Of a stretch of 64,000 nt of DNA, positions 18,889 through 33,338 are shown piece after piece (position 1 is the first letter of the stretch; each line of letters begins with the position of its first letter). Under the pieces are notes generated by a model. The model made no database searches, was not told the origin of the DNA, and saw only the letters and a program-made list of their open reading frames with translations. The stretch covers positions 1 to 64,000 of the forward strand of contig JBQTHX010000018.1 in NCBI GenBank assembly GCA_052389415.1, in the 5' to 3' direction. Source of the stretch: Nitrosopumilaceae archaeon. Lineage in GTDB: Archaea > Thermoproteota > Nitrososphaeria > Nitrososphaerales > Nitrosopumilaceae. Both the position numbers and the translations under genes were made by a program.

Positions 18889-19288
18889 TGATAGATGATG
18901 AACTTTTTCTGATATTTATTCCGATTGATCCGTTATGTGGAAAACTGATATGGTATTTATTACAAAAGCTAGTTTTGAGTACATGAATTTTGAGTAAACA
19001 CCAATACTTTTTTGGTTTTTCACGTTTTTTTAAAAAAAAGGGAATCTGTTATGATTTCCGAAAAAACTTCCCATGTAGGGTGTCACATAAATTGCTCCTT
19101 TAAAATGACCCTTTGAATATTTGAATAGATGAACTATCCCGATGCTAGCAGATCCTGAGAGACATGATTTTATTTAGATGGTTATTTCGAGAAAAATCTA
19201 TTTAACAGATTGGAAAGATACAAGAACCTATTGTCTTTCCTGGAAATTACAATACAAGATAATTAAAGTTCTTTCGCTATTGGGAATT

Positions 19289-19747
19289 ATGAGTAAACAA
19301 GTTTGCTTTTTATGTGAACAAGAACTAGGAGTGCTAAATATAAAATGGTCTGCAAAGGGTTTTCTTTCTTCAAGAGTTCCTATTCCAGAAGGGATGGGTG
19401 AAGAGGACAGAGTTTGTAACGAGTGTTACAACGTAGAAAAAAAGCAAGTCAAAGAAGAACTAAAGGAAGCAAAAGAGGAATTTAAAGAGATAACTGTGGA
19501 TCTACTCAAAAGAACGCCTGAATACAAAAAACTCTGGAACAAGGATGGTGTTATTCAGTTCAAGAACGAAAGAGTAGCTATTCTTCAAAGAGCGCTAGGC
19601 AAGCAAGTGGAATTTATCATTGCGTTTGACGATCTAACAAAGGAAGGATACAAACTCATGGCAATACAGGAGATTCAAAGCACAGATGGTAAATCTGTAG
19701 GAGGAATTAATTCCAACTACTTTTTCCAGAAAATGCAAAGCCTGTAG
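19289..19747 (+). CDS. Hypothetical protein with N-terminal Zn ribbon
   Basis: CFLC...CNEC. The ATG at 19289 is preferred over the track start at 19178. Confidence 0.6.
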   Translation: MSKQVCFLCEQELGVLNIKWSAKGFLSSRVPIPEGMGEEDRVCNECYNVEKKQVKEELKEAKEEFKEITVDLLKRTPEYKKLWNKDGVIQFKNERVAILQRALGKQVEFIIAFDDLTKEGYKLMAIQEIQSTDGKSVGGINSNYFFQKMQSL

Positions 19748-19847
19748 TTATGTAGTTCAATTCTAAAATAATAAAACGAATCTTTATTTTTAATCCATTT
19801 TAAAACTGCCCAGAATATTTATTTGAGGGAGAAATTCTCATTCATGC

Positions 19848-20461: not shown

Positions 20462-20994
20462 GCTCGCCACCAATCTAGTGCTATACAATCTACCTTATCT
20501 TTGCCCCGTGGTATAGCTAAGATAAATTGCTTCTTGACTGTAGTGGCAAGCCTCCCAGCCAGAACCACTCCTGTAGCAGTAATTGTATCACTGGTGTTAT
20601 AGACCTGAACTAAATAGGGAGCATGATCAATTCCAGGTCCTTTTTGATATACTGCAAAATCACAACCAAATTTTATTCCGGGATTTACTATGTATCCCTT
20701 TTCTCTGAAATCTTTGTAGACTGAATATTTTTTATCAAAGTTATGGTATTCTGACCTTGCTATTTGCAATAACTCCTTTTCTGAAATTTGTTTTTTTGCT
20801 TTGTAAACTTTAATTTTTGATTTTTGTATTAGGTAATATCCTTCTATTAAATCCAAAATCAGAGGTACGTTTATCTCATCTAGTTTTGGTTTTGATATTC
20901 CAACTGGTTTTCCATAATATCCCTGCACAAAAAGAGAACGCGAATCTTGGATGTTCCAGATTACGATTCTATTTTCTATTAGTTCGCCTTTCAA
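20458..20994 (-). CDS. endA: tRNA-splicing endonuclease, catalytic subunit
   Basis: G.KFG.DFAVY..GPG.DHA and R.A..VKK catalytic Y/H/K motifs. TTG start at 20994 (MKGELIENR) is inferred from the att duplication. Confidence 0.9.
   Translation of the reverse strand: MKGELIENRIVIWNIQDSRSLFVQGYYGKPVGISKPKLDEINVPLILDLIEGYYLIQKSKIKVYKAKKQISEKELLQIARSEYHNFDKKYSVYKDFREKGYIVNPGIKFGCDFAVYQKGPGIDHAPYLVQVYNTSDTITATGVVLAGRLATTVKKQFILAIPRGKDKVDCIALDWWRA
20982..20994. repeat. attL core (GTTCGCCTTTCAA)
   Basis: Identical to 32671-32683. Reverse complement TTGAAAGGCGAAC is the first 13 nt of endA. Confidence 0.85.
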
Positions 20995-21040
20995 TTTAGG
21001 ATTATTGTCACTTAAATGCCAGTAATTAACGTTATAGACC
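20995..21040. promoter_or_regulatory. Compact divergent promoter region between endA and the integrase
   Basis: 46 bp. TTAAAT at 21012-21017 lies 24-29 nt before the integrase ATG. TAATTAA at 21023-21029 lies ~30 nt before the endA TTG on the minus strand. Confidence 0.45.
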
Positions 21041-22297
21041 ATGCAACGAAGTCTACTGCGATTCGAAAATGCCATAAAGAGTGAATCTACAAGAAAGTCA
21101 TACAGGTATCAGCTACAAAAGTTTCTGGGATGGGCAAAAGTTCCTGAAGCTGATGGACTGTTGAAACTTAGTGATTCTGACTTGGAATTGTTGCTTGAGG
21201 ATTACCTGTTCTATAAAAAAACTAGAATCAGTCCTAATAGCATTCCTTTGATCTTTTCTCCACTTGAATTATTCTTTGGTATGAACGACAAAAATGTTAA
21301 TTTTAAAAAATTAAGAAAAATGTTTCCTGCTAAAGTGAAGAGAAGTGGTTATGCTGCTTGGAGTAATGAAGATGCTCGAAAAATACTTGATGGTGCGAAA
21401 GGTTATCGTAACAAAGCACTAGTTCACGTTCTTGCAAGTACTGGATGTCGACTAGGGGCTATTCCTACATTGAAAGTAGGTCATGTTTCAGACATGCAAG
21501 GTGGATGCAAAGCAATCCTTCTCTATGAAGGATCAAACGAAGAATACTACGGTTTCTTAACCCCTGAAGCAAGTAAGGCACTGGATGAATATTTGGAGAG
21601 ACGAAAACAGGACGGCGAAAAAGTAGGGATTGAATCTCCACTTTTCCGTTTACATTACAGGATAGGTTCAGCAAAGGTGGAACCGCTTAACATGATTGCC
21701 CTGCAAGCCACGATGGTGAACATCATGAAATATGCAAGACCTAAGAGACACAAGGTTGGAATACGATACAACATTCAGCTTGATCACGGTTTTAGAAAGA
21801 GATTTGCCACAATTATCAAAATGGATAAAAAGATCAGTTGGGCAGTAGGGGAAAAACTACTTGGTCATAAAACATATCTTGATGCGGAATATTTCAATCC
21901 TACAAAAGAAAACCTTTTTGCAGAATTTCAAAAGGTTGTTTTTAATCTTACAATCGACGATTCTGAAAGAAACAAAATAACCATTCATGATCTAAAACAG
22001 CATAATTCTACTCTTCAAGTCAAGACTGCAGAAATTCCTGAAATGAAGAAGCAGATTGAACATGATCACTTGATAGTTCAGGTATTGGCAAAAACTATGA
22101 AGGAGATTGGAATAAATTTTGAATATCCTGACGGCACGCCATATAAGATTGATGAAAATCTCAAAATCCCTGCTGAATACCTTCCTGAAACTGTTGCATA
22201 CGATAAACCTCTAGTTGCACATAGCGAAGAAATTTTTCGTAAGATGCGTGAAAAAAATAGTACTAATTTTTTTAATGGGGAAAAAAGGTCCTACTAA
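21041..22297 (+). CDS. Tyrosine recombinase/integrase
   Basis: TGCRLG (R), HGFRK (HxxR), LLGH and AEYF (Y) catalytic motifs. N-terminal T.KSY...L..F core-binding region and a C-terminal coiled-coil extension. Confidence 0.93.
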   Translation: MQRSLLRFENAIKSESTRKSYRYQLQKFLGWAKVPEADGLLKLSDSDLELLLEDYLFYKKTRISPNSIPLIFSPLELFFGMNDKNVNFKKLRKMFPAKVKRSGYAAWSNEDARKILDGAKGYRNKALVHVLASTGCRLGAIPTLKVGHVSDMQGGCKAILLYEGSNEEYYGFLTPEASKALDEYLERRKQDGEKVGIESPLFRLHYRIGSAKVEPLNMIALQATMVNIMKYARPKRHKVGIRYNIQLDHGFRKRFATIIKMDKKISWAVGEKLLGHKTYLDAEYFNPTKENLFAEFQKVVFNLTIDDSERNKITIHDLKQHNSTLQVKTAEIPEMKKQIEHDHLIVQVLAKTMKEIGINFEYPDGTPYKIDENLKIPAEYLPETVAYDKPLVAHSEEIFRKMREKNSTNFFNGEKRSY

Positions 22298-22489
22298 ATT
22301 TTAGAGAATTTTTTCTTGTTTTAATTACTTAGTAAAATAAATTCATCACACTTTATACATTTCCAGAAACCTATGATTACGCCTAAAACCTCACACTAAG
22401 CGTGATATGATGTGTGATATTATAAAAAATGTGAAAATAGCCATAATGTTAGGCATAACAAAATCACATTTTGATAGCTACCACAGGCA

Positions 22490-22975
22490 TAACGTTTTCA
22501 GTACCGCATATTTTTTATGTTCACATAATTTTTTAAAATCACATAATTACACATTTTAGGCACATAATTAACATCTAGATATTCACATAAAAAATTGCCA
22601 AAAGTTTTTTTTGACCCGATACAGCTTGTTTGACACATCTTATGATTTGAATCTTTTAGGTCCATAAGAAAATCTTAGGAATAAGATTTTGAAATATTCT
22701 AAGATCAGGCATTTTATTCCTAAGATTCCTTCTATCTTGTTCCTAAGAAAAAAGGTATTGTAATAACATTTAGCATATTTGCTTGTAATACCATATGACT
22801 CGTTGCAGGAAACGTCATAATATGGGACGAGTGAGTTCTTATAGGCTCATATTAAAATCATGTGCACATGATTTTATGATATCACATGATCTGGTTTTTT
22901 GTTCACATGATCATTCACAAGCTACGCACATGAAAAAGAGGTCTATTCAAATGAAAAAAGCTTGTATGACAAAAG
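22490..22975. repeat. Non-coding array of three homologous units with unit-specific heptamer repeats
   Basis: Heptamer starts: CACATAA 22522/22540/22561/22584; nnTAAGA 22680/22698/22719/22742; CACATGA 22865/22883/22904/22927. All are spaced 18/21/23 and each set begins within a 22-bp palindrome. Confidence 0.9.
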
Positions 22976-23035
22976 CCTCGACATAAGCTTGATTATTTTG
23001 TACAAAAAGATGCGAATTTATCCATTTATGCAACA

Positions 23036-23061
23036 ATTGCGTAATCATTGTATAGATTACG
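23036..23061. repeat. Symmetric 26-bp site, copy 1 (ATTGCGTAATC-N8-GATTACG)
   Basis: 23/26 identical to 24014-24039. Contains the stop codon of the nfo-like gene. Confidence 0.75.
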
Positions 23062-23902
23062 CGGATAATTCCTTTACTTTTTTTATGTTTCCAAAGTCAT
23101 CGCGTCTATCATCTATTGGCGTTTCCAAAATGATTGGAATCTTCTTAGAACTAGCAAATTTAATCACGTGTCTGAGTCCTTCTTCTCCTATCTTGCCTAA
23201 TCCAATGTGCTCATGTCTGTTTACGTTGCACCCTATTTCTCCCTTCGAATCATTTAGATGAATTAGTTTGAGGTGCTCAAATCCTATGGATTCATCAAAT
23301 TTTTTAAGCGTTGTTGAAACTGATGTTTCAGTTCGTAAATCATATCCTGCTGCAAATGCATGGCAAGTGTCAAAGCAGATGCCAAACCTATTTGCAGGTT
23401 TGAGTTGCCGCAAAATGGAAGCTAGCTGCTCAAAATCAGAACCTACGCTGTTTTTGAATCCAGCCGTGTTCTGAAGAAGAATCATAACATCGTTTTGGTT
23501 TTCTGAAGTAGCTTTTGTAAACGCTTCAACAAGCTTTTCTATTGCCCTCTCGTCACCCGCTCCCATGTGGCTTCCTAGCTTAGATATGAGGTATGGAATG
23601 CCTAGTTGACCAGCTCTTCTTGTCTCATCAATTAAGCTGTTCAAAGATCTTACAAAAAAATCTCCATGTGGAGATGATAGATTTGACAGAATTGGCATTT
23701 TAGCAAACGTTGCAAACCTGTCAATTTTACTTGCAGCAAGTTTTTCTCTAAAATTAGTTATAACATCATTTGAAAGTGGTTTTGCTTTCCACCCACGTGG
23801 ATTTCTTGTAAAAATTTGAAAAGCAGTGCAACCAAGAGTTAGTGCGTTATCTACTGCTCTATCGATGGAACCACTGATGGATACATGCATTCCAAGCTGC
23901 AT
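23057..23902 (-). CDS. Endonuclease IV (Nfo)-like paralog with substituted metal ligands
   Basis: GMHVSI.G, QIFTRNPRGW, CFDTCH, HLNDSK and ILETP are intact, but K68, I71, K108, Q144 and N228 replace canonical H, Y, H, E and D. Confidence 0.9.
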   Translation of the reverse strand: MQLGMHVSISGSIDRAVDNALTLGCTAFQIFTRNPRGWKAKPLSNDVITNFREKLAASKIDRFATFAKMPILSNLSSPHGDFFVRSLNSLIDETRRAGQLGIPYLISKLGSHMGAGDERAIEKLVEAFTKATSENQNDVMILLQNTAGFKNSVGSDFEQLASILRQLKPANRFGICFDTCHAFAAGYDLRTETSVSTTLKKFDESIGFEHLKLIHLNDSKGEIGCNVNRHEHIGLGKIGEEGLRHVIKFASSKKIPIILETPIDDRRDDFGNIKKVKELSA

Positions 23903-24013
23903 CGTCTTTCATCTATAACAAGTCGGTGATTTAGATAAACTGGATCGTCTCATATACGAATAAAATTTTAATTTCATGTGAGAATTAGATTTACCGTCGT
24001 AATCCTAAACAAG

Positions 24014-24039
24014 ATTGCGTAATCTTAGTAGAGATTACG
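24014..24039. repeat. Symmetric 26-bp site, copy 2
   Basis: ATTGCGTAATCTTAGTAGAGATTACG, preceded by an overlapping similar unit at 23998-24019. Confidence 0.75.
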
Positions 24040-24278
24040 AAATAAAATCAAATCATACGCAAGAACAGAAACGCAGATAGATCCTAATCTATGCTGGATC
24101 TCAACAGACTAGAACCAATATTGTAGTTTGAACAAAGATTCAATCGATATACATGGAAGTGTCAAAAAGACACCTGCTGAACAAGATGAAATAAAGCTAA
24201 TTTTGGTCAGAATAAGATAATCGTTTGTCGAAAAACTTTAGGCTTTATATATTTATTTTATAAAATGTACAAATATTT

Positions 24279-24301
24279 TATCTTTACAACAAGTAAAGAT
24301 A
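24279..24301. promoter_or_regulatory. Inverted repeat (candidate operator) upstream of the Lamassu operon
   Basis: TATCTTTAC-aacaa-GTAAAGATA, a perfect 9-bp stem abutting the TATA-like ATATTAA ~26 nt before the GTG at 24330. Confidence 0.45.
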
Positions 24302-24329
24302 TTAACTAATCACAAATGATGATCAAGAA

Positions 24330-25549
24330 GTGGGAAAATTTTCTGCAGCTTCGTCTGCTCTCGGATACCTATTTCAGGCAAGGGAAGGATTACTCCTATT
24401 ACTAAATTCAGAACCAAAAACTGTCATGTATTTAGAACGTTTTGATGACATAGAATTTGAAAAAGATGGTTCACCAACGGAACTAATACAGTTAAAACAC
24501 AAACCAAGGTCGGCAACATCTCTGTCGGATACTAGCCCGGACATATGGAAAACACTACGAATTTGGATTGAAGCGCATAAGAGCCGCCATGTTAACTTAG
24601 ATAACACAATTTTCACCATAATTACTACAAATAAGGCAGAACATAATTCTGTAGCAAGTGTATTAGGATTAGATCAATCTAAACGGGATGTCAAATACGC
24701 TGTGGAGACTCTAACAACAGTGGCTAAAACTTCAGTTAGTAAGACTAACGAAGTAGCATACAAAGTCTTCTTAAATCTAGAATACGGCGAACAATACAAA
24801 TTATTAGATAGCACAAGAATCATAGATTCAGCTTCAACTATAGTAAATTTGCAAGAGGCATTCTACAAAAAATTAAGAATAGCCATTGACCAGAACACCT
24901 CAAATCCTTCCTCGAACGATTAGAGGGGTGGTGGTTTGGCGTTGTCATTAGTCATTTATCCGGTGACTCTTCAGAACCAATTCATTATGAGGAGTTAGAA
25001 GCAAAGATTCATGATCTAAGTGACCAGTATCGAGTTGAAGATCTGCCAATAGATTACAGAAACCTGATTCCTACAGAGGAAGCAGAATTAACAGCAAAAC
25101 AACAAATTTTTGTAAATCAACTAAACATCATCATGTTAAGACAACCCAGAATAAAAAAAGCTATTACCGATTATTACAAAGCGTATAATCAACGGTCAAG
25201 ATGGGTAAGAGAAAAGCTTGTTTTTCTCAACGAACTAAGTGAATATGAATCACAGTTAATTGATGAATGGGAACGTTATTTCTTTAAAGTTGATGAAGGT
25301 CTTCGTTCTACCCCCACCGAAGGCGAGTTAGTGAGTGCAGGAAGAACAATTTTTGACTGGATGGATACTCAAGCCGATTTCTGCATAAGAAAGTATTGTA
25401 CGGAACCATACGTTATGAGAGGCACGTATCATATTCTTGCAAATAAACTTCGTGTAGGCTGGCATCCAAAATTCCTAGAGCGTCTACAAGAATTACTTTC
25501 ACCAGATTCGGAGAAACATTATGGAACAACAGAAAGAGCGTCCAATTGA
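24330..25549 (+). pseudogene. Frameshifted Lamassu/ABC-3C effector (LmuA-like; Cap4-type PD-(D/E)xK nuclease plus C-terminal domain)
   Basis: The N-part has GY.FQ and E.FDDIEF...IQLKH. The -1 frame from 24890 is open to 25549 (EHLKSFLERLEGWW...LP.D...QRSRW...RGTYH.LAN..VGWHP). The joined product is ~406 aa. Confidence 0.8.
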
Positions 25550-26006
25550 AATAGCGTCCCTTCTTAATCCAGCATTTTGTGGTCAGACTATATTGCATTG
25601 TATTTACAAATTTGAAAAAGTTGCTTCAGATGGATTCCCATACCCGTTGGTTTTTCTAGTATTGCCATTAATACTACATCAGGAAACAAGAGCAAAGGTT
25701 CCTTCTTTTACCCGCATCCCGTTTCATGTTTGGCTCCATAAAAATCAGAATCTGTTAATTGGCTTCGCAGAACGTGCAAAACAATTGGTCACAATTACGA
25801 AAGAAGCCATTGCATTCTTGGCGAGTTATGACGTACTTAAATTAGAAGATGGAAAATTCAGAGTTAGTAACTTTGAACCAAAATATGATGCTGCTATCTC
25901 ACTGGATGTAAAGGATTGCTTTGCGAAGGCGGAAGTATTAGGAAAGTGGTTTGCAAGAACGGGTACTACAGCGACAATATATTCTATGTTAGGAGTGCAA
26001 CCCTAG
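25521..26006 (+). CDS. ABC-three-component middle component (LmuC-like, DUF6521-type)
   Basis: LLNPAFCG, FLVLPLILH..TR, LGKWF motifs. Lies between the effector and the ATPase. Confidence 0.85.
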   Translation: MEQQKERPIEIASLLNPAFCGQTILHCIYKFEKVASDGFPYPLVFLVLPLILHQETRAKVPSFTRIPFHVWLHKNQNLLIGFAERAKQLVTITKEAIAFLASYDVLKLEDGKFRVSNFEPKYDAAISLDVKDCFAKAEVLGKWFARTGTTATIYSMLGVQP

Positions 26007-26007
26007 T

Positions 26008-27924
26008 TTGCAAATTTTGCAAGTAATTCTATATGGTTATAATAACAAAGTACGTACGTTATCGTTTAAACTAGGCTCAGTAAACATAATCACTGGTAAT
26101 TCTGCAACAGGCAAATCCGCCATACTAGAAATTGTTGATTATTGTTTAGGTAAATCGGAATGTTCGGTACCAGCTGGCGTCATCCGTGATTCAGTAAGAT
26201 GGTTCGGAATTGTTCTACAACTGAAAAATAGTCAAATGTTTATTGCAAGGAAAAATCCTCCAGCTGGTAGCACATCTTCAGAAGTGTACATAGAGGAAGC
26301 TAAAGAGATTCGTATTCCGTCCTCTCCAATGCCAAGTAATAGTAATGTTGATGCATTAATTGAGACTCTGAGTAATAAAGTCGGAATATCTCCTAATCTT
26401 TACATTCCACCGAGAGGTCAAACGCGAGAAAAGTTATCCGCGACGATACGTCATACTACATTCTTCTGTTTTCAAAAGCAGGATGAAATTGCGACCAACA
26501 GATATCTATTCCATCGTCAAGCAGATGGTTTTATCGCGCAATCGATTAAGGATTCTTTAGAATATTTTTTGGGCGCGATTAGGGAAGACAGATTAGCATT
26601 ACTACAGAAATTAACTCTAGAAAAGAGGAATTTAAGCAAAGCAGAACGAGAACTGGTCGAGGCAGAAGCAATTAGAGGGGAAGGAATAAGCAAAGCTGTA
26701 GGATTAATAATACAAGCCAAAGAAGTTGGACTTGCTTCTCAGGAAGTTAACACACAAACACCGGAAGAATATCTAAAAGTGCTCCAAAATATTTCAAAAT
26801 GGAGACCTCGCGATCTAAAGGTTCCAAAAGCAAATCTTTTAGAAAAACTACAAGATGACCTGCTGACACTAAAAGAAGAATTAAGAAGGAAAAATGAAGA
26901 AATAAATTCAGCAGTTACATTCTCTCAAGAGGCAGAAGGATTTACGGATGAGATACAATATCAAGAACACCGTCTCGAATCTATAGGGCTATTTGATGAA
27001 CACAGTGAATCCGATTGCCCCATGTGTTCGCAGCCTATTAAGGAAAGGAGTGATAAAGCTAAAGAAATTCAAAAGATGATTCATGAACTAAAAAATAATC
27101 TTGAGGGCTCACTGAGAACAAGATCGAATATTAGAGATTACATAGCAAAATCTGACGAAGAAGCAGAATCGATCAGAAAGAAAATCGACGAAAAAACCAT
27201 TGAAATTTCATCGTTAATACAAGAACATGAATCATCAAGCAAGTTACGTGATGAGAATATCCGGCAAAGCCAGATCATTGGCAAGATAAAATTTTGGCTC
27301 GAGAGTGTTGCTCTTACAGACGAAACGTCAGAATTGCGGTTGGCTGTTGAAAAAGCTAAGAAGAAAGTGAAGGAACTAGAATCATTAATTTCTGATGAGG
27401 AGAGAATAATGCGTCTAACTAGGATTTTGAACATTATCGGAAGGCAAATGTCTATTTGGACAGAAGAATTAGAATTAGAGCATAGTGGATATCCTGTTTA
27501 TTTTGATATTCACAAATTAACAGTTGGAGTAGAAAAAGATGAACAATATATTCCTCTAATAGAAATGGGGAGTGGCGAGAATTGGTTAGGCTATCATATA
27601 ATAGTAAATTTTGCTCTGCATTTGTATTTCCATCGGCATAATAGACCAGTACCAAGTTTTCTCTTCTTAGATCAACCGTCTCAAGTCTATTTCCCGCCAG
27701 ATTTAGCAGATGAGTCGAAGGGTTCAATAGCTAAACTGAAAGATCGAGATAGAGATGCGATTAAAAGGATATACAATTTCATTTTCAAAGTTACAGAATC
27801 AATGGCGCCAAACTTTCAGGTAATAGTAACGGATCATGCAAAGTTGGACGATCCTAAATTCCTTAAAAGTATTAGAGAAGAATGGAGAGACGGTAAAGCT
27901 TTGATTCCTCAAGATTGGCAATAG
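26008..27924 (+). CDS. SMC/Rad50-like ABC ATPase (LmuB-like, DUF3732-type)
   Basis: Walker A GNSATGKS, coiled coils, CPMC Zn hook, GSGENW signature, FLFLDQPSQ Walker B, TDHA. Confidence 0.9.
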   Translation: MQILQVILYGYNNKVRTLSFKLGSVNIITGNSATGKSAILEIVDYCLGKSECSVPAGVIRDSVRWFGIVLQLKNSQMFIARKNPPAGSTSSEVYIEEAKEIRIPSSPMPSNSNVDALIETLSNKVGISPNLYIPPRGQTREKLSATIRHTTFFCFQKQDEIATNRYLFHRQADGFIAQSIKDSLEYFLGAIREDRLALLQKLTLEKRNLSKAERELVEAEAIRGEGISKAVGLIIQAKEVGLASQEVNTQTPEEYLKVLQNISKWRPRDLKVPKANLLEKLQDDLLTLKEELRRKNEEINSAVTFSQEAEGFTDEIQYQEHRLESIGLFDEHSESDCPMCSQPIKERSDKAKEIQKMIHELKNNLEGSLRTRSNIRDYIAKSDEEAESIRKKIDEKTIEISSLIQEHESSSKLRDENIRQSQIIGKIKFWLESVALTDETSELRLAVEKAKKKVKELESLISDEERIMRLTRILNIIGRQMSIWTEELELEHSGYPVYFDIHKLTVGVEKDEQYIPLIEMGSGENWLGYHIIVNFALHLYFHRHNRPVPSFLFLDQPSQVYFPPDLADESKGSIAKLKDRDRDAIKRIYNFIFKVTESMAPNFQVIVTDHAKLDDPKFLKSIREEWRDGKALIPQDWQ

Positions 27925-28387: not shown

Positions 28388-29452
28388 ATGTATCCACTGA
28401 TTGACGCCGCACGACTTTACGATGAACTTGCTTTGTCGTCGGAGAGAATTAAATGGTCTTGGGCTTGCAGAATTTTAGATAAATCCAACCTTAAGATTGA
28501 TACTTCACTGCCAACGACGCCAAGAGCTGGTGATATTGTTCTTGTAAGAGTGGAACAAATTGGTTATCATAAATCAATCATAGCTTCTAGCAATAAAAAA
28601 CTCCGTATATATGATGGCGATCTTATCATGGGAATTTTTGGGAACCGATATGCCACAAACGCACTTGAAGGTGTAGTCGAAGGATTTGAAAACCTCAGCA
28701 TTTTGACTGCAGGTGGAATGATTGGAACGGTAAAATCCAAACATCAAGACTTTGGGAAAACTACCAACGTCTCATTTATTGGGTTTCTAAATGACAAGAG
28801 TAACCATAGGGTTAACCTAAAAGAACTGAAATTTCACAAATCGAAACCAGTCAGCGATACAAAAAATCTAATAGTTTTAGTTGGAACAGGAATGAATACA
28901 GGCAAAACAACATCTGTTAGAATGCTAATTAGAGGACTTTCAAAAAGGGATCTAAAAATAGCTGCATGCAAACTTACAGGTAGTGTGTCAAATAGAGACG
29001 CAGACGAAATGAGGTCCGCATCAGCTAGCTGTACAATTGATTTTAGCGATTATGGATTTCCTTCAACATATCTGTGTGACAAAGAAGAGTTACTTGATCT
29101 CTTCAATAATATGTTATCTGATGTGGAAAAGTTAAATCCAGACGCAACGGTGATGGAAATTGCTGATGGTATTCTTCAAAGAGAAACCATGATGCTTCTT
29201 GAGGATCCATCAATTAAAAAAAGAGTCAAAGGCATTATACTAACAGCGGAAAGTGCACCATCTGCGCTTTATGGTGTTGACAAACTCAAAAAATTAGGTT
29301 ACAATATAATCGGGGTATCGGGTGCAATGACATCGTCACCATTATTTGTAAAAGAATTCAGGCAAAACTGCGAAGTCAGAGTAGCGTCATCTGTTGATTC
29401 GGCGGATGAATTGGTCGAAATTGTTCACAAGGCTATTACTATGGAAAACTAG
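28388..29452 (+). CDS. DUF1611-like P-loop NTPase (BioD/SIMIBI-type)
   Basis: GNRYAT, GTGMNTGKTT, KLTG....D, DF.D.GFPSTY, EIADGILQRET. Confidence 0.7.
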   Translation: MYPLIDAARLYDELALSSERIKWSWACRILDKSNLKIDTSLPTTPRAGDIVLVRVEQIGYHKSIIASSNKKLRIYDGDLIMGIFGNRYATNALEGVVEGFENLSILTAGGMIGTVKSKHQDFGKTTNVSFIGFLNDKSNHRVNLKELKFHKSKPVSDTKNLIVLVGTGMNTGKTTSVRMLIRGLSKRDLKIAACKLTGSVSNRDADEMRSASASCTIDFSDYGFPSTYLCDKEELLDLFNNMLSDVEKLNPDATVMEIADGILQRETMMLLEDPSIKKRVKGIILTAESAPSALYGVDKLKKLGYNIIGVSGAMTSSPLFVKEFRQNCEVRVASSVDSADELVEIVHKAITMEN

Positions 29453-29468
29453 AAGACATTGTTGAAGA

Positions 29469-31241
29469 ATGAGCTCACAGCAGATATCTCCAGTAAAATA
29501 TGCACTTAAGCATCTTAAAAAATATAAGCTAAAATTAGCAGCTGCCATCTTCTGGTCTATTCTTTTTGTAATAATTCCTATGCAGGTGCCTATTCTTACT
29601 GGAGCTTTAATTGATGGCATACATGGAAAGAGTGTAAAATTATACGGACTTGTAGAATTAAATCAATCACAGGAACAAATTCTCAATCTTGCTGTTATAG
29701 GTCTAGTTCTAGTTGCCGCAATTTATGGTGTCACTGCGTATTTTCGTACAACTGCAAGAGCAAAGATAAGTCGGCACTTCATATTTGAGCTTCAAAAAGC
29801 ACTGATTCAAAAATTAGAATTTCTATCCTTAGATATACACGCAAAATACGGATCTGGAGAACTACTAAACAGAACAATAGTTGATACTGGTTCAGTAAGA
29901 CCGTTTGTTGAAGGCACTATAATCAAAGCGTGCACCAACGTTGTTAGAATAACATATCCATTTCTAATACTGTTCATTATGGATCCAATTCTTGCTGCAA
30001 TGTCTTCGTCAATCTTGCCCGTTCAATTCTTACTTACTAGAACTCTACAAAAAAAAGTTCGTAAAGCGTCAAGACATTCTAGAAAAAACAGATCAAAGTT
30101 AACCACCTTCGTAAAGGAAAGTCTTGATGGCATAGAAACAATTCAAACTTCAAATGCCGAAAGATATTCAATTGAGAAAATTTCCCGACAAGCAGAAATG
30201 GTGGAAACCCATCAATTACATACTCAGAAATATTTTGGACTGATGACTGGTCTTGCATGGTCTCTAACTAGTTTAGGACTAGCAATAACATGGTGGCAAG
30301 GTGGACTCAAGGTCATATCAGGAGAAATGACAATAGGCAATCTAATAGTTTTCACAGGGTTTGTACTCTTTATTTATGCCCCCCTGCGCAGATTTACGGA
30401 AGTAATGAAGGATTACCATAAAAGTATAACAGCAGTTGAGAATATTCAAGAAATTCTGGATACACCTTCATCAATTCAGGAATCTCCAGATGCGGTACAA
30501 TTAACAGCGCCACATGGAAAAATAGAACTCCAGAACGTCAGTTTTTCATATGCTGAACGCAAAGTATTGAACAATCTTAACATTACTATCGAAAAAAATA
30601 GCATTACAGCCATAGTAGGTAAAAGTGGTTCAGGGAAGAGCTCTCTTTTAAAATTGATTACAAGACTGTATGATCCCTCGGAGGGACAAATTCTGATTGA
30701 TGGACAGGATATCAAAAAAATCACTCTTCTATCCCTTAGAAAGGCTATCGCAGTTGTTCCTCAGACACCTGTGATCTTTAATGGAACAATACTGGAAAAT
30801 GTCAGATTAGCAAGACCAGAGGCAACAGATCAAGAAGTAATAGAAGCATGCAAATCAGCTGACGCGTTGGAATTTATTCTTAAACTTGATAGGGGATTCA
30901 ACGCAGTTCTAGGAACTGGTGGAACCAATCTTTCTGGAGGACAAGTCCAACGAGTAGCCATAGCAAGAGCCTTACTTAAGAAACCAAGAATACTTTTGCT
31001 GGATGAACCCAGCTCCGCCTTAGATGCTAAATCAGAATCAGCTGTGATAGCAACGTTAGAACATCTAAAAAATAATATGACAATCATATTGGTTGGGCAT
31101 CATCTTAAAGCAATTAGCAGTGCAGACAGATTAATCGTATTAGATGACGGAAAAGTAGTGCAAGAAGGAACTCATAAAGAACTTGTTTCTTCACAGGGAG
31201 TTTACAGTCTCTTGTATTCTTGGGAGGAAAATAAAAATTGA
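29469..31241 (+). CDS. ABC exporter, fused permease/ATP-binding protein
   Basis: Six-TM domain plus GKSGSGKS, LSGGQ and LLLDE. Confidence 0.93.
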   Translation: MSSQQISPVKYALKHLKKYKLKLAAAIFWSILFVIIPMQVPILTGALIDGIHGKSVKLYGLVELNQSQEQILNLAVIGLVLVAAIYGVTAYFRTTARAKISRHFIFELQKALIQKLEFLSLDIHAKYGSGELLNRTIVDTGSVRPFVEGTIIKACTNVVRITYPFLILFIMDPILAAMSSSILPVQFLLTRTLQKKVRKASRHSRKNRSKLTTFVKESLDGIETIQTSNAERYSIEKISRQAEMVETHQLHTQKYFGLMTGLAWSLTSLGLAITWWQGGLKVISGEMTIGNLIVFTGFVLFIYAPLRRFTEVMKDYHKSITAVENIQEILDTPSSIQESPDAVQLTAPHGKIELQNVSFSYAERKVLNNLNITIEKNSITAIVGKSGSGKSSLLKLITRLYDPSEGQILIDGQDIKKITLLSLRKAIAVVPQTPVIFNGTILENVRLARPEATDQEVIEACKSADALEFILKLDRGFNAVLGTGGTNLSGGQVQRVAIARALLKKPRILLLDEPSSALDAKSESAVIATLEHLKNNMTIILVGHHLKAISSADRLIVLDDGKVVQEGTHKELVSSQGVYSLLYSWEENKN

Positions 31242-32575
31242 TTCAACTAGATTCTGTTCTGAAACCTATAGAAAATCACAACTCATCTGAATCTGAAATT
31301 ATTGGTTTTTCAGAAGAGGATAGGCCATTAACCGTTACATACCATGGTAGAAACATAAAATCATCACTTAGGGTTTTTATTATTGCGGGTCAACATGGAG
31401 ACGAAAGATATGGACGTAAAGCCATTGATCGTTTTATTACTTACATGACAGATGGAAAACTAAATTTTCCACTAATGCAGTTTGCAATTTTGTCTAACGC
31501 AAATCCAGACGGTGCGTCAGTAAGGAAACGAGAAAACGCACAGGGGATAGATTTGAATAGAGATCATCAACGTTTGGACAGTAAGGAGAACCGCTGTGTA
31601 CATTCCTTCGTAAGACGATGGAATCCACACATGATTATTGATGTACACAACTACCCTTCAAAAAGGAAACATCTACTAGAAAAAGACATCATGCTATATT
31701 ATGATGTACTTGTAGACGTTCCAACAAATCCAGCTGCCTATTGTATTAAAGAAAAAAGCAAAGCAGAATTCATAAAAAATATTCGTTCAGATCTACGATC
31801 TCATAACATTAATTGTGAAAGATACTTTATTGTAAAGCCATCGGGGAGAGTCAGACATGGTAGCCCTGACATAGTAGACGCTAGAAATTCGCTTTCATTA
31901 AGGTACAACACTTTGACTTTTCTAGTAGAGGGACGAACTTCCACACGAGGAGAAGATAAATCCTACAGGGAACATCTTGTTTCTTCCCAATGCGAAGCGA
32001 TTGCATCAATACTGCGATGGACCCAAACGCAAAGAAGTTCTTTAATGGAAAATCAAAACTCCATTCCTAAAAAAGGAGACAATGTCGCAATTAGTTCGAG
32101 ATATGTAGGAGCTACTCAACCATTTGAAATAAGTTTTAAGAATTTACAAACAAGAAAATTGGACGTTGTTTCACTTGTAAAGTATACGCCCAGCATAAAA
32201 GTTACAAAATATGCTACTTTACCAACTTGTTACGCTATTCCATCAGGTAAGTCCAAGGTCATTGAAATGCTACATAGACATGGATTCGTGTCTGCGCTTT
32301 CTGACTCCCATAAGTTTGAAAATATTCAATATTATAGTATTCAGTCTGTAAAATATTCAACACGCGAAAATAGAGCGCCAAGGAAAATCACTATGTTGAC
32401 AAAATCAGAACAAAGAAGATTAGATAAATTCTTTATTTTCCCCACATCTCAAAGAGGAGGTCACTCGCTTGCAGTCTTTTTGGAGCCTGACTCGAAGTAC
32501 GGACTTCATAGATACGCCGATCTAGATCTGCCAATTATTCCAGATTCACATTATCATATCTTACGAATTATGTGA
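31238..32575 (+). CDS. M14 family zinc carboxypeptidase
   Basis: GQHGDE (HxxE), NPDG, RENAQGIDLNRD, IDVH. No signal peptide. Confidence 0.88.
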   Translation: MIQLDSVLKPIENHNSSESEIIGFSEEDRPLTVTYHGRNIKSSLRVFIIAGQHGDERYGRKAIDRFITYMTDGKLNFPLMQFAILSNANPDGASVRKRENAQGIDLNRDHQRLDSKENRCVHSFVRRWNPHMIIDVHNYPSKRKHLLEKDIMLYYDVLVDVPTNPAAYCIKEKSKAEFIKNIRSDLRSHNINCERYFIVKPSGRVRHGSPDIVDARNSLSLRYNTLTFLVEGRTSTRGEDKSYREHLVSSQCEAIASILRWTQTQRSSLMENQNSIPKKGDNVAISSRYVGATQPFEISFKNLQTRKLDVVSLVKYTPSIKVTKYATLPTCYAIPSGKSKVIEMLHRHGFVSALSDSHKFENIQYYSIQSVKYSTRENRAPRKITMLTKSEQRRLDKFFIFPTSQRGGHSLAVFLEPDSKYGLHRYADLDLPIIPDSHYHILRIM

Positions 32576-32670
32576 CCATCATGTGGATACACACTTCAAG
32601 TTCAGCCTTGATGACACGTAGTCTTTAGAATTTTTGATACTATCATACAATTGAAAAAATTCGCTAATTT

Positions 32671-32683
32671 GTTCGCCTTTCAA
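32671..32683. repeat. attR core (GTTCGCCTTTCAA)
   Basis: Identical to 20982-20994. Begins 1 nt after the DUF47 stop codon on the minus strand. Confidence 0.85.
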
Positions 32684-32684
32684 G

Positions 32685-33338
32685 TTATAGGCTTAGGGCT
32701 AAAGAAATAAAGGAATCAGAGGCTTCAAGACATTTATCGGCCATTTCCTCCACTCCGCCTATGATGTCTTTTAAAAGTAACAATTCTTTGGTAATTGTAA
32801 TCTCATCTAAGACCTTGATCGTTAGGTCACGATATTTATCATCCACATTACGTTCTATTTTTTGAGTTTCATGAGCAAGCTCTATGGCTCCTGATGGATT
32901 AGTATTCAGTGCACGAACAATTTCATTCAGCTTGTAAATTTCATCTACTACTAGATCAATTAATTCTGTAATGTCTTTGTCAAGTTTACTTTTCTTCAAA
33001 GTAGAAGCCTTGATATTTGAAAGTTTGAATGCTATGCCGTTGATATATCCTGAAATTTCATCCATTGTATATGCTGTTCGCAAGATATTTTCCCTATTCA
33101 TCATCAAGCCTCCTACTTCAGCAATCTCTCTTGTTATCTTTCGGCGCAGAGCTTCTACTTCATCTTCTGTGCTGCGCATTCGTTCAAGGGATGCTTTTAT
33201 CTCGGTTTTATCTCCTTTTATAATAAGGGCAGGTAATGCAGAGAGATCTCTTACTGCGTTAAGAATTCTGTTAATTTCATCTTGCAAAACTGCAATCGCT
33301 TTTCGCTTTGCTTGAACTTCTAATTCTCCGCTGTACAT
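32685..33338 (-). CDS. DUF47/PhoU-like phosphate transport regulator
   Basis: Two helical repeats (E...E.LRR.I; IE..VDD.YR; EEMAD). Confidence 0.85.
   Translation of the reverse strand: MYSGELEVQAKRKAIAVLQDEINRILNAVRDLSALPALIIKGDKTEIKASLERMRSTEDEVEALRRKITREIAEVGGLMMNRENILRTAYTMDEISGYINGIAFKLSNIKASTLKKSKLDKDITELIDLVVDEIYKLNEIVRALNTNPSGAIELAHETQKIERNVDDKYRDLTIKVLDEITITKELLLLKDIIGGVEEMADKCLEASDSFISLALSL

Follow-up and report, generated by a model that had tools for sequence, protein, structure and literature searches.

An ammonia-oxidizing archaeon of the Nitrosopumilaceae (GenBank assembly GCA_052389415.1) carries, as cargo of an integrated mobile element, a third endonuclease IV (EndoIV) gene with a rebuilt active site. 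This gene, here called nfo*, lies at positions 23057 to 23902 on the minus strand of the stretch of DNA that we analyzed (the window, i.e., nucleotides 1 to 64,000 of contig JBQTHX010000018.1) and codes for 281 residues. EndoIV is the textbook case of an enzyme with three metals, and its nine ligands are taken to be invariant; four of them are replaced in nfo*, together with a tyrosine that wedges into DNA. The gene is real, selected, and noncanonical. We give a probability of about one-half to the reading that its product, derived from the type A lineage described below, is an Nfo with altered or impaired catalysis that is kept by selection, serves the element or its host, and is neither a normal repair enzyme nor a dead gene.

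The open reading frame (ORF) of nfo* starts with ATG and runs through 281 codons without internal stops. Its product matches two models of the Nfo family over their curated cutoffs and at full length, namely, TIGR00587 (nfo; 254.8 bits against a cutoff of 129.65, over model positions 2 to 274 of 279) and PF01261 (AP_endonuc_2; 132.8 bits against 31.1), and it falls under the cutoffs of all four Nfo "equivalog" models (236.4 against 315, 229.3 against 376, 173.6 against 333, and 113.3 against 244). Its best solved relatives by HMMER are the EndoIV of T. maritima (2x7v and 4hno; E = 3.6e-52) and E. coli Nfo (1qtw and 4k1g; E of about 5e-49). The AlphaFold2 model (mean predicted local distance difference test score, 87.8; predicted template modeling score, 0.90) aligns with EndoIV structures, which make up all the top PDB matches, with template modeling (TM) scores of 0.87 to 0.89, compared with 0.56 to 0.66 for isomerases; xylose isomerases and epimerases rank after EndoIV in the fold search. 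Nfo* is thus predicted to have the triosephosphate isomerase (TIM) barrel of EndoIV. A match to the CbiR phosphodiesterase model was weak (19.5 bits against a cutoff of 105). Contigs of two sequencing runs span positions 22900 to 25600 with 0 differences and 0 gaps, at depths of 14.6 and 11. This agreement excludes an isolated assembly error; it is not independent confirmation, as the runs share a study and the assembly may have been built from them. The nfo* gene is known as a single sequence from one metagenome-assembled genome.

The nine metal ligands of E. coli Nfo are reportedly H69, H109, E145, D179, H182, H216, D229, H231, and E261, an assignment said to go back to Hosfield et al. in 1999, and the residues that EndoIV inserts into DNA are R37, Y72, and L73. 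The HMMER alignments of nfo* to T. maritima EndoIV and E. coli Nfo, which hold a net offset of +1, place K68, I71, K108, Q144, and N228 opposite E. coli H69, Y72, H109, E145, and D229. Unchanged are R36, D178, H181, H215, H230, and E260, which correspond to R37, D179, H182, H216, H231, and E261. Hence, the protein keeps five of the nine ligands (the changes being H69K, H109K, E145Q, and D229N): all three Zn1 ligands are replaced, by K, K, and Q, and the H182/D229/H231 site keeps both histidines with N in place of D. Among the DNA-inserting residues, R36 and L72 are kept and position 71 is I. The motifs FTRNPRGW, NTAG, HAFAAGYD, HLNDS, and RHEHIGLG are identical in nfo* and both canonical paralogues of the same genome, the Y72 loop being the sole EndoIV-specific DNA-contact motif that is altered. 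A legend in a report on C. pneumoniae EndoIV assigns the equivalents of H69/H109/E145 to one site and those of D179/H182/D229/H231 to another and corroborates six of the nine ligand positions listed above (PMC13113976).

The altered codons, all read on the minus strand and identified by alignment and the codon table, are AAA for K68 (positions 23699 to 23701; Zn1 ligand), ATT for I71 (23690 to 23692; DNA wedge), AAG for K108 (23579 to 23581; Zn1 ligand), CAG for Q144 (23471 to 23473; bridging ligand), and AAC for N228 (23219 to 23221; ligand of the H182/H231 metal site). Thirteen type A relatives have CAT/CAC, TAT/TAC, CAT/CAC, GAA/GAG, and GAC/GAT at these codons, in the order of the residue numbers. 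Each His-to-Lys change therefore needs two base changes, as does Y to I, and E to Q and D to N need one each, for a total of at least eight. All 121 comparators (119 database matches and the two paralogues of the same genome) have the canonical H, Y, H, E, and D at the five positions, including H at the equivalent of H69 in 121/121. Among 132 columns conserved at 98% or more, nfo* deviates at 10 (H68K, Y71I, P73S, C97A, V106I, H108K, K113M, G120A, E144Q, and D228N), 4 of which are metal ligands (hypergeometric P = 0.0018). When the nine ligands, R37, and Y72 are taken as 11 functional residues, a list that follows the E. coli structural literature, 5 of the 11 are changed versus 5 of the 121 other conserved columns (Fisher P = 0.0003). 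The residue pattern is thus correct and statistically nonrandom. The initial annotation, made from the nucleotide sequence, had called the same K/I/K/Q/N replacements, their two-base His-to-Lys steps, and their clustering on ligands, and these calls hold.

The genome (1.43 Mb in 94 contigs, 94% complete) contains three nfo genes, i.e., nfo* and two canonical copies of the kind that the initial annotation had proposed to look for. The type A copy (C14:49668-50504) is 72% identical to nfo* and lies downstream of a 380-residue ORF, which from its sequence we take to be primase-like; the other copy (C67:64701-65540) is 64% identical. Two canonical paralogues, types A and B, are the norm in the genus. 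Eight of 10 genus relatives have two nfo genes, one (G003) has one match, and one (G010) has none, with identities to nfo* of 72 to 77% for type A and 63 to 68% for type B. A true third nfo was found in 0 of the 10. The apparent third gene of G006 proved to be one type B gene split over two contig ends.

In a protein tree with the signature columns masked, nfo* nests inside the Nitrosopumilaceae clade (support, 0.999). The first tree, of 33 taxa, placed it beside its own genome's type B copy with a bootstrap value of only 47. In a search of 5.8 billion clustered proteins, the best match shares 77% identity with nfo* and has the canonical residues. The initial annotation had also called for homologues with the K/K/Q/N signature. 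The pattern K68-M-P...K108-L-G-S-H...Q144-N gave 0 matches in metagenome, genome, and viral collections, in searches with back-translated DNA patterns of fixed spacing that would miss indel variants. A looser family-wide pattern gave 10 matches in genome contigs, none of them Nfo (short or unrelated frames), and a K108-only lineage pattern gave two metagenome matches, both limited to the motif, and 0 viral ones; all 12 raw matches were due to chance. The nfo* gene is a singleton.

Pairwise ratios of nonsynonymous to synonymous substitution rates (dN/dS; Nei-Gojobori) between nfo* and type A genes are 0.09 to 0.17, with dS of about 0.9 to 1.8; the other tabulated type A/type B pairs give 0.065 to 0.139. 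In a branch codon model (our own maximum-likelihood scripts with F3x4 frequencies, one tree of 14 taxa, and 280 codons), omega was 0.145 on the nfo* branch and 0.077 in the background, with likelihood ratio test (LRT) values of 5.6 against a single ratio and 35.1 against an omega of 1 when all parameters were reoptimized. On the nfo* branch, the 11 functional residues had an omega of 0.57, which is not distinguishable from 1 and far over background, versus 0.13 for the other 269 codons; separate omegas for the two classes, estimated with the other parameters fixed, were favored with an LRT of 9.5 (P = 0.002). Under a neutral codon model, the probability that all five residues change is 0.03 at 0.2 and 0.21 at 0.44 synonymous substitutions per codon, the latter value being the whole nfo* branch. 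Over the same range, about 7 to 15 stop-creating substitutions are expected, the probability of no stop is 1e-3 to 4e-7, and that of all six other functional residues staying unchanged is at most 0.011.

The nfo* gene thus has neither the broken frame nor the dN/dS of about 1 of a pseudogene. Because its ORF is intact, an omega of 1 is rejected, and the neutral-time model predicts stops that are absent, the data do not agree with decay alone. Whether the five sites changed fast, by positive selection, or slowly, as constraint on them was locally relaxed, purifying selection continued to act on the fold and the remaining ligands. These results bear out the proposal of the initial annotation that the changes reflect selection over decay. 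It had also named a unique signature combined with a dN/dS near 1 as speaking against its proposal; the signature is indeed unique, and the branch omega is far from 1.

Comparison of 20 kb of DNA with the genus showed that five relatives (G001, G003, G005, G008, and G009) join window position 20998 straight to 32672. Two 21-nt imperfect direct repeats, identical at 19 of 21 positions and 11,689 bp apart (repeat family D6), mark the ends of an 11.7-kb insertion. The left, attL-like repeat lies at positions 20978 to 20998 and the right, attR-like repeat at 32667 to 32687, both on the plus strand; they were found by repeat search and by aligning the empty site of G009, whose alignment follows the left flank as far as the repeat and, beyond the repeat, the right flank. 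Just inside the left end, positions 21041 to 22297 (plus strand) code for a XerA-like tyrosine recombinase/integrase of 418 residues (PF00589). The integrase, the direct repeats, and the empty site that relatives have identify nfo* as cargo of an integrated mobile element. The initial annotation was right to place it in an island and opposite a divergently transcribed Lamassu operon. At the same junction, G010 has 335 bp between the flanks and G006 about 4.8 kb of unrelated DNA (G006:C7:20399-25201). The insertion site lies at the 5' end of a tRNA-intron endonuclease gene and may be a hot spot; no tRNA gene was found in the window as an integration target.

Homologues of the integrase (E ≤ 1e-30) occur in 49 of 151 sampled Nitrosopumilaceae genomes, the genome under study and two unpublished ones being counted. 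The genome under study encodes another member of this integrase family, with 38% identity, at G000:C77:18049-19086. No relatives of the integrase were found in viral contigs. An nfo-like gene was present within 1.5 kb on either side of 0 of six related integrase loci (L113, from an unpublished genome, was left out), in a search that found the positive control at the element's own locus.

Natural replacement of Nfo metal ligands is not limited to nfo*. In the 150 nearest diverse representatives of the family, each ligand except H69 is kept in 149 or 148 and H69 in 146, and the Y72 position is Y in 147, F in 2, and H in 1. One representative, P0124, has N/F/D/Q...Q at H69/Y72/H109/E145/E261. When P0124 is counted together with the 119 relatives listed for it, 92 proteins have all nine canonical ligands and 28 deviate; 27 of the latter have D or N at H109, nearly all of them with Q at E145 and Q at E261. 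These D/Q/Q variants, which are of Nitrososphaeraceae type and make up 27 of the 120 sequence clusters around P0124, carry either H or N at the H69 position and one of Y, H, F, and L at the Y72 position (P0124, P0271, P0273, P0276-P0278, P0281-P0283, P0286, P0288, P0289, P0292-P0294, P0298, P0300, P0308, P0309, P0311, P0313, P0315, P0316, P0322, P0327, P0342, and P0378). In a tree with six signature columns masked, 24 of them form one clade without a canonical member (support, 0.77), with three more beside it, and the internal branches are long.

Among the Nitrososphaeraceae loci examined, two of the 11 published ones carry a D/Q/Q variant (L094, G607:C16:2182-3045; L097, G527:C359:2928-3788); a further locus, in an unpublished genome, was dropped. 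In G607, the canonical nfo adjoins the gene of the primase large subunit, and the variant lies among PNPOx-, RibD_C-, SnoaL-, and SDR-type genes. The signature was found in no solved structure, the PDB matches being canonical enzymes or engineered mutants, and our literature search found no paper on the D/Q/Q Nfo clade. As this clade shows, Nfo metal sites, once rebuilt, can be maintained through long divergence. With K, Q, and E at H109, E145, and E261 and a place outside the clade, among Nitrosopumilaceae sequences, nfo* is an independent and differently rebuilt case. Both are thaumarchaeal accessory copies beside a canonical one that have lost H109, have Q at E145, and keep the fold and the remaining ligands. 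In contrast to nfo*, with its K at H109, the D/Q/Q paralogues have D or N there, have Q at E261, and keep D229; they are diversified, with at least 27 sequence clusters in their clade, and the G607 copy lies on no obvious mobile element.

With canonical Nfo (E. coli 1QTW and 1QUM, T. maritima 2X7V, and type A of the genus), nfo* shares its length, its end-to-end match to TIGR00587, the predicted TIM barrel, and the DNA-contact motifs. It differs from them in that they keep H69, H109, E145, D229, and Y72, and it rides an integrated element, whereas the canonical copy of G607 adjoins a primase gene. The engineered E. coli Nfo H69A (PDB 4K1G), of the base excision repair (BER)-normal/nucleotide incision repair (NIR)-deficient kind, has lost a Zn1 ligand at the same position; unlike it, nfo* is natural, has Lys rather than Ala, and has all three Zn1 ligands replaced along with two further changes.

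For the DNA binding, metal content, and activity of nfo*, we infer a mechanism from the unchanged motifs, the literature on E. coli Zn1, and the 4K1G and 2NQ9 structures. The introduction of one study links Zn1 of E. coli Nfo to the nucleotide-incision and 3'-5' exonuclease activities and describes mutants as "BER-normal/NIR-deficient" (PMC2923195). PDB 4K1G is Nfo-H69A with cleaved DNA, according to its title and to a figure legend of a second paper, which gives Y72A Nfo (PDB 2NQ9) as "bound to THF-DNA" (tetrahydrofuran-containing DNA) versus "cleaved" for H69A (PMC8307549); the PDB title of 2NQ9 has it bound to damaged DNA. From both sources, the loss of Zn1 ligands as in H69A would be expected to abolish nucleotide incision and exonuclease activity and possibly to leave AP (apurinic/apyrimidinic)-site incision (PMC2923195, PMC8307549).

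Under our preferred reading, an extra nfo gene would have been copied from the type A lineage of Nitrosopumilaceae and would now be the cargo of the 11.7-kb integrase-borne element. After copying, one of the three metal sites would have been dismantled by the change of both His residues to Lys and of the bridging Glu to Gln, with Asp to Asn in a second site and Ile in place of the DNA-wedge Tyr, while purifying selection held the TIM barrel, the DNA-recognition loops, the other five ligands, and R36. With its conserved loops and what is left of the metal pocket, holding one or two metals, the protein would dock on damaged DNA, be it at abasic sites, at nicks, or at blocked 3' ends, and two lysine ammonium groups would stand in for the Zn1 charge. 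Nucleotide incision and 3'-5' exonuclease activity that depend on Zn1 would be lost, and AP-site or 3'-end chemistry would at best be slow or narrowed. Nfo* thus probably still binds damaged DNA and lacks the Zn1-dependent activities. As Zn1 mutants are described as BER-normal and H69A is bound to cleaved DNA in 4K1G, loss of Zn1 alone need not stop AP-site cleavage, and the noncutting character suggested in the initial annotation is unproven. Our literature search found nothing joining "endonuclease IV" and "pseudoenzyme".

A more far-reaching proposal, possible in our view and held tentatively, makes nfo* the first natural "lysine-for-zinc" EndoIV. Such a protein would be selected to grip abasic sites or damaged 3' ends without normal processing, and with it the element could shield its own DNA from, or jam, host repair or defense nucleases; together with the D/Q/Q clade, it would reflect repeated rebuilding of the Nfo site in ammonia-oxidizing archaea for new jobs or metals.

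Upstream of nfo*, and divergent from it across a 427-nt spacer, the element carries a Lamassu operon on the plus strand. LmuA is encoded in two parts, an N-terminal part at positions 24330 to 24923, whose frame ends in a stop (PADLOC LmuA model positions 5 to 182 of 373), and a C-terminal part in another frame at 24893 to 25549, with a CTD7 domain (PF20283; PADLOC LmuA positions 265 to 370). They are followed by LmuC (MC3) at 25521 to 26006 (PF20131; PADLOC LmuC) and by LmuB, an SMC-like ATPase with DUF3732, at 26008 to 27924 (PADLOC LmuB, 448 bits; PF12532). One frameshift in the frame overlap at 24893 to 24923, present in the contigs of both sequencing runs, breaks LmuA (24330 to 25549), and the relative in G331 is a single open frame of 402 residues. 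The Lamassu system is probably inactive unless the frameshift is read through.

This type of Lamassu occurs in two of 401 genomes of the phylum, the one under study and G331, and no nfo-like gene lies within 1.5 kb upstream of the G331 system, a weak test as it is the only comparator. No PADLOC model matches nfo*, and our literature search found no paper joining "endonuclease IV" and "Lamassu". A functional link between nfo* and Lamassu, as the sensor, shield, or inhibitor proposed in the initial annotation, thus finds no support. The island resembles Lamassu islands (LmuA/LmuB/LmuC, ABC-3C) in the CTD7 domain of LmuA, the MC3 domain of LmuC, the DUF3732 of LmuB, the tyrosine integrase, and the direct repeats, and differs from them in the frameshift-split LmuA and in Nfo, which is not a described component. 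Integrated elements of the Thaumarchaeota phylum are described in PMC6563490, in which "endonuclease IV" occurs 0 times.

The palindrome CGTAATC-N8-GATTACG has only three copies in the 1.43-Mb genome by a genome-wide search, all bracketing nfo*. One copy (23040 to 23061) overlaps the nfo* stop codon, and two overlapping copies (23998 to 24019, with one mismatch, and 24018 to 24039) lie 96 to 137 nt upstream of its ATG in the spacer to LmuA. This palindrome could be the operator of a dimeric regulator or a cassette boundary. The 760-nt noncoding gap between the integrase gene and nfo* (22300 to 23057) has many short repeats (ATCATGTG four times; ATTATGTG, TCACATAA, and GCACATGA three times each), which may serve as arm sites of the integrase or as iterons for replication. 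A piece of the spacer at 24139 to 24218 (68 to 80 nt) is 80% identical to G001:C35:4484-4563 and G010:C6:622-689; the rest of the island is absent there. Family scans of the remaining cargo on the plus strand detected, within positions 28388 to 32575, a 354-residue protein with weak, subthreshold P-loop matches only, an ABC exporter (29469 to 31241), and an M14-like peptidase (31238 to 32575). A second, small insertion relative to the genus (18947 to 19814, about 870 bp) holds an ORF of 189 residues (19178 to 19747) that matched no Pfam or NCBIfam family.

Several points weigh against the reading that nfo* encodes a selected, altered Nfo. The nfo* gene is a singleton, with 0 true matches to its signature in three collections and a best database relative that is canonical. 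The omega of its 269 other codons (0.13) exceeds the background with an LRT of 10.95 (other parameters fixed), which points to some general relaxation; moreover, a branch omega is a time average that may, by itself, be compatible with recent inactivation, and the codon models are home-made (F3x4 and one 14-taxon tree). The adjoining LmuA is frameshifted, i.e., the island shows decay. Finally, with Y72I and D229N among the five joint changes, catalysis may be either wholly lost or nearly intact.

In another explanation, which we regard as unlikely, though not negligible, nfo* is a recently inactivated duplicate heading for loss, the active-site changes being the first hits and the low dN/dS a memory of its functional time. 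Its singleton status, an omega about twice the background, the broken LmuA, the two intact canonical copies in the genome, and an island whose orthologue was seen in 0 of 10 genus relatives all agree with such a course. It accounts poorly, however, for an intact ORF with an omega of 1 rejected (LRT, 35.1), for at least eight base changes in five functional codons versus 5 of 121 changes in the other conserved columns, and for six other functional residues and a reading frame that neutrality would have been expected to break (P ≤ 0.011 and P ≤ 1e-3, respectively, with 7 to 15 stop-creating substitutions predicted). A zinc-sparing or alternative-metal Nfo, i.e., an efficient AP endonuclease with fewer or other metals in which the lysines do the electrostatic work of Zn1, strikes us as rather improbable: the Zn1 loss is compounded by Y72I, E145Q, and D229N, the Y72A protein is given as "bound to THF-DNA" where H69A is "cleaved" in a figure legend of PMC8307549, no metal-regulator site was identified, and the host already has two canonical copies. 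What speaks for such an enzyme is that E. coli Zn1 mutants are described as BER-normal in the introduction of PMC2923195, that 4K1G is H69A with cleaved DNA, that five of nine ligands and R36 are retained under apparent constraint, that a thaumarchaeal clade conserves other ligand swaps and is presumably active, and that the unique palindrome bracketing nfo* could be an operator.

A Lamassu accessory, acting as sensor, shield, or inhibitor on the DNA ends or structures sensed by LmuB, would fit the residence of both on one 11.7-kb element and the divergent arrangement with LmuA across a spacer that holds two of the three palindromes; with 0 PADLOC models matching nfo*, the G331 Lamassu devoid of an nfo-like gene within 1.5 kb upstream, no pairing found in the literature, and LmuA frameshifted while nfo* is intact, we consider this role improbable. 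Recruitment to a new, non-DNA substrate, as in the xylose isomerase-like TIM-barrel relatives that act on sugars or phosphoesters, is very improbable in our judgment. The remodeled metal site, the diversity of the superfamily, in which xylose isomerases and epimerases rank after EndoIV by fold, and the weak CbiR match lend themselves to it, yet the DNA-contact motifs are unchanged except for the Y72 loop, nfo* is 72 to 77% identical to canonical Nfo, and its predicted fold is far closer to EndoIV than to isomerases (TM scores of 0.87 to 0.89 versus 0.56 to 0.66).

The nfo* gene offers a ready-made test of what the three-metal mechanism needs for binding as opposed to cutting, and it is a candidate natural pseudo-enzyme on a mobile element. 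As a singleton, it is of moderate interest by itself, and of more when read together with the D/Q/Q clade. The many members of that clade make its signature testable for conservation and function, so that the evolvability of the Nfo metal site becomes directly testable.

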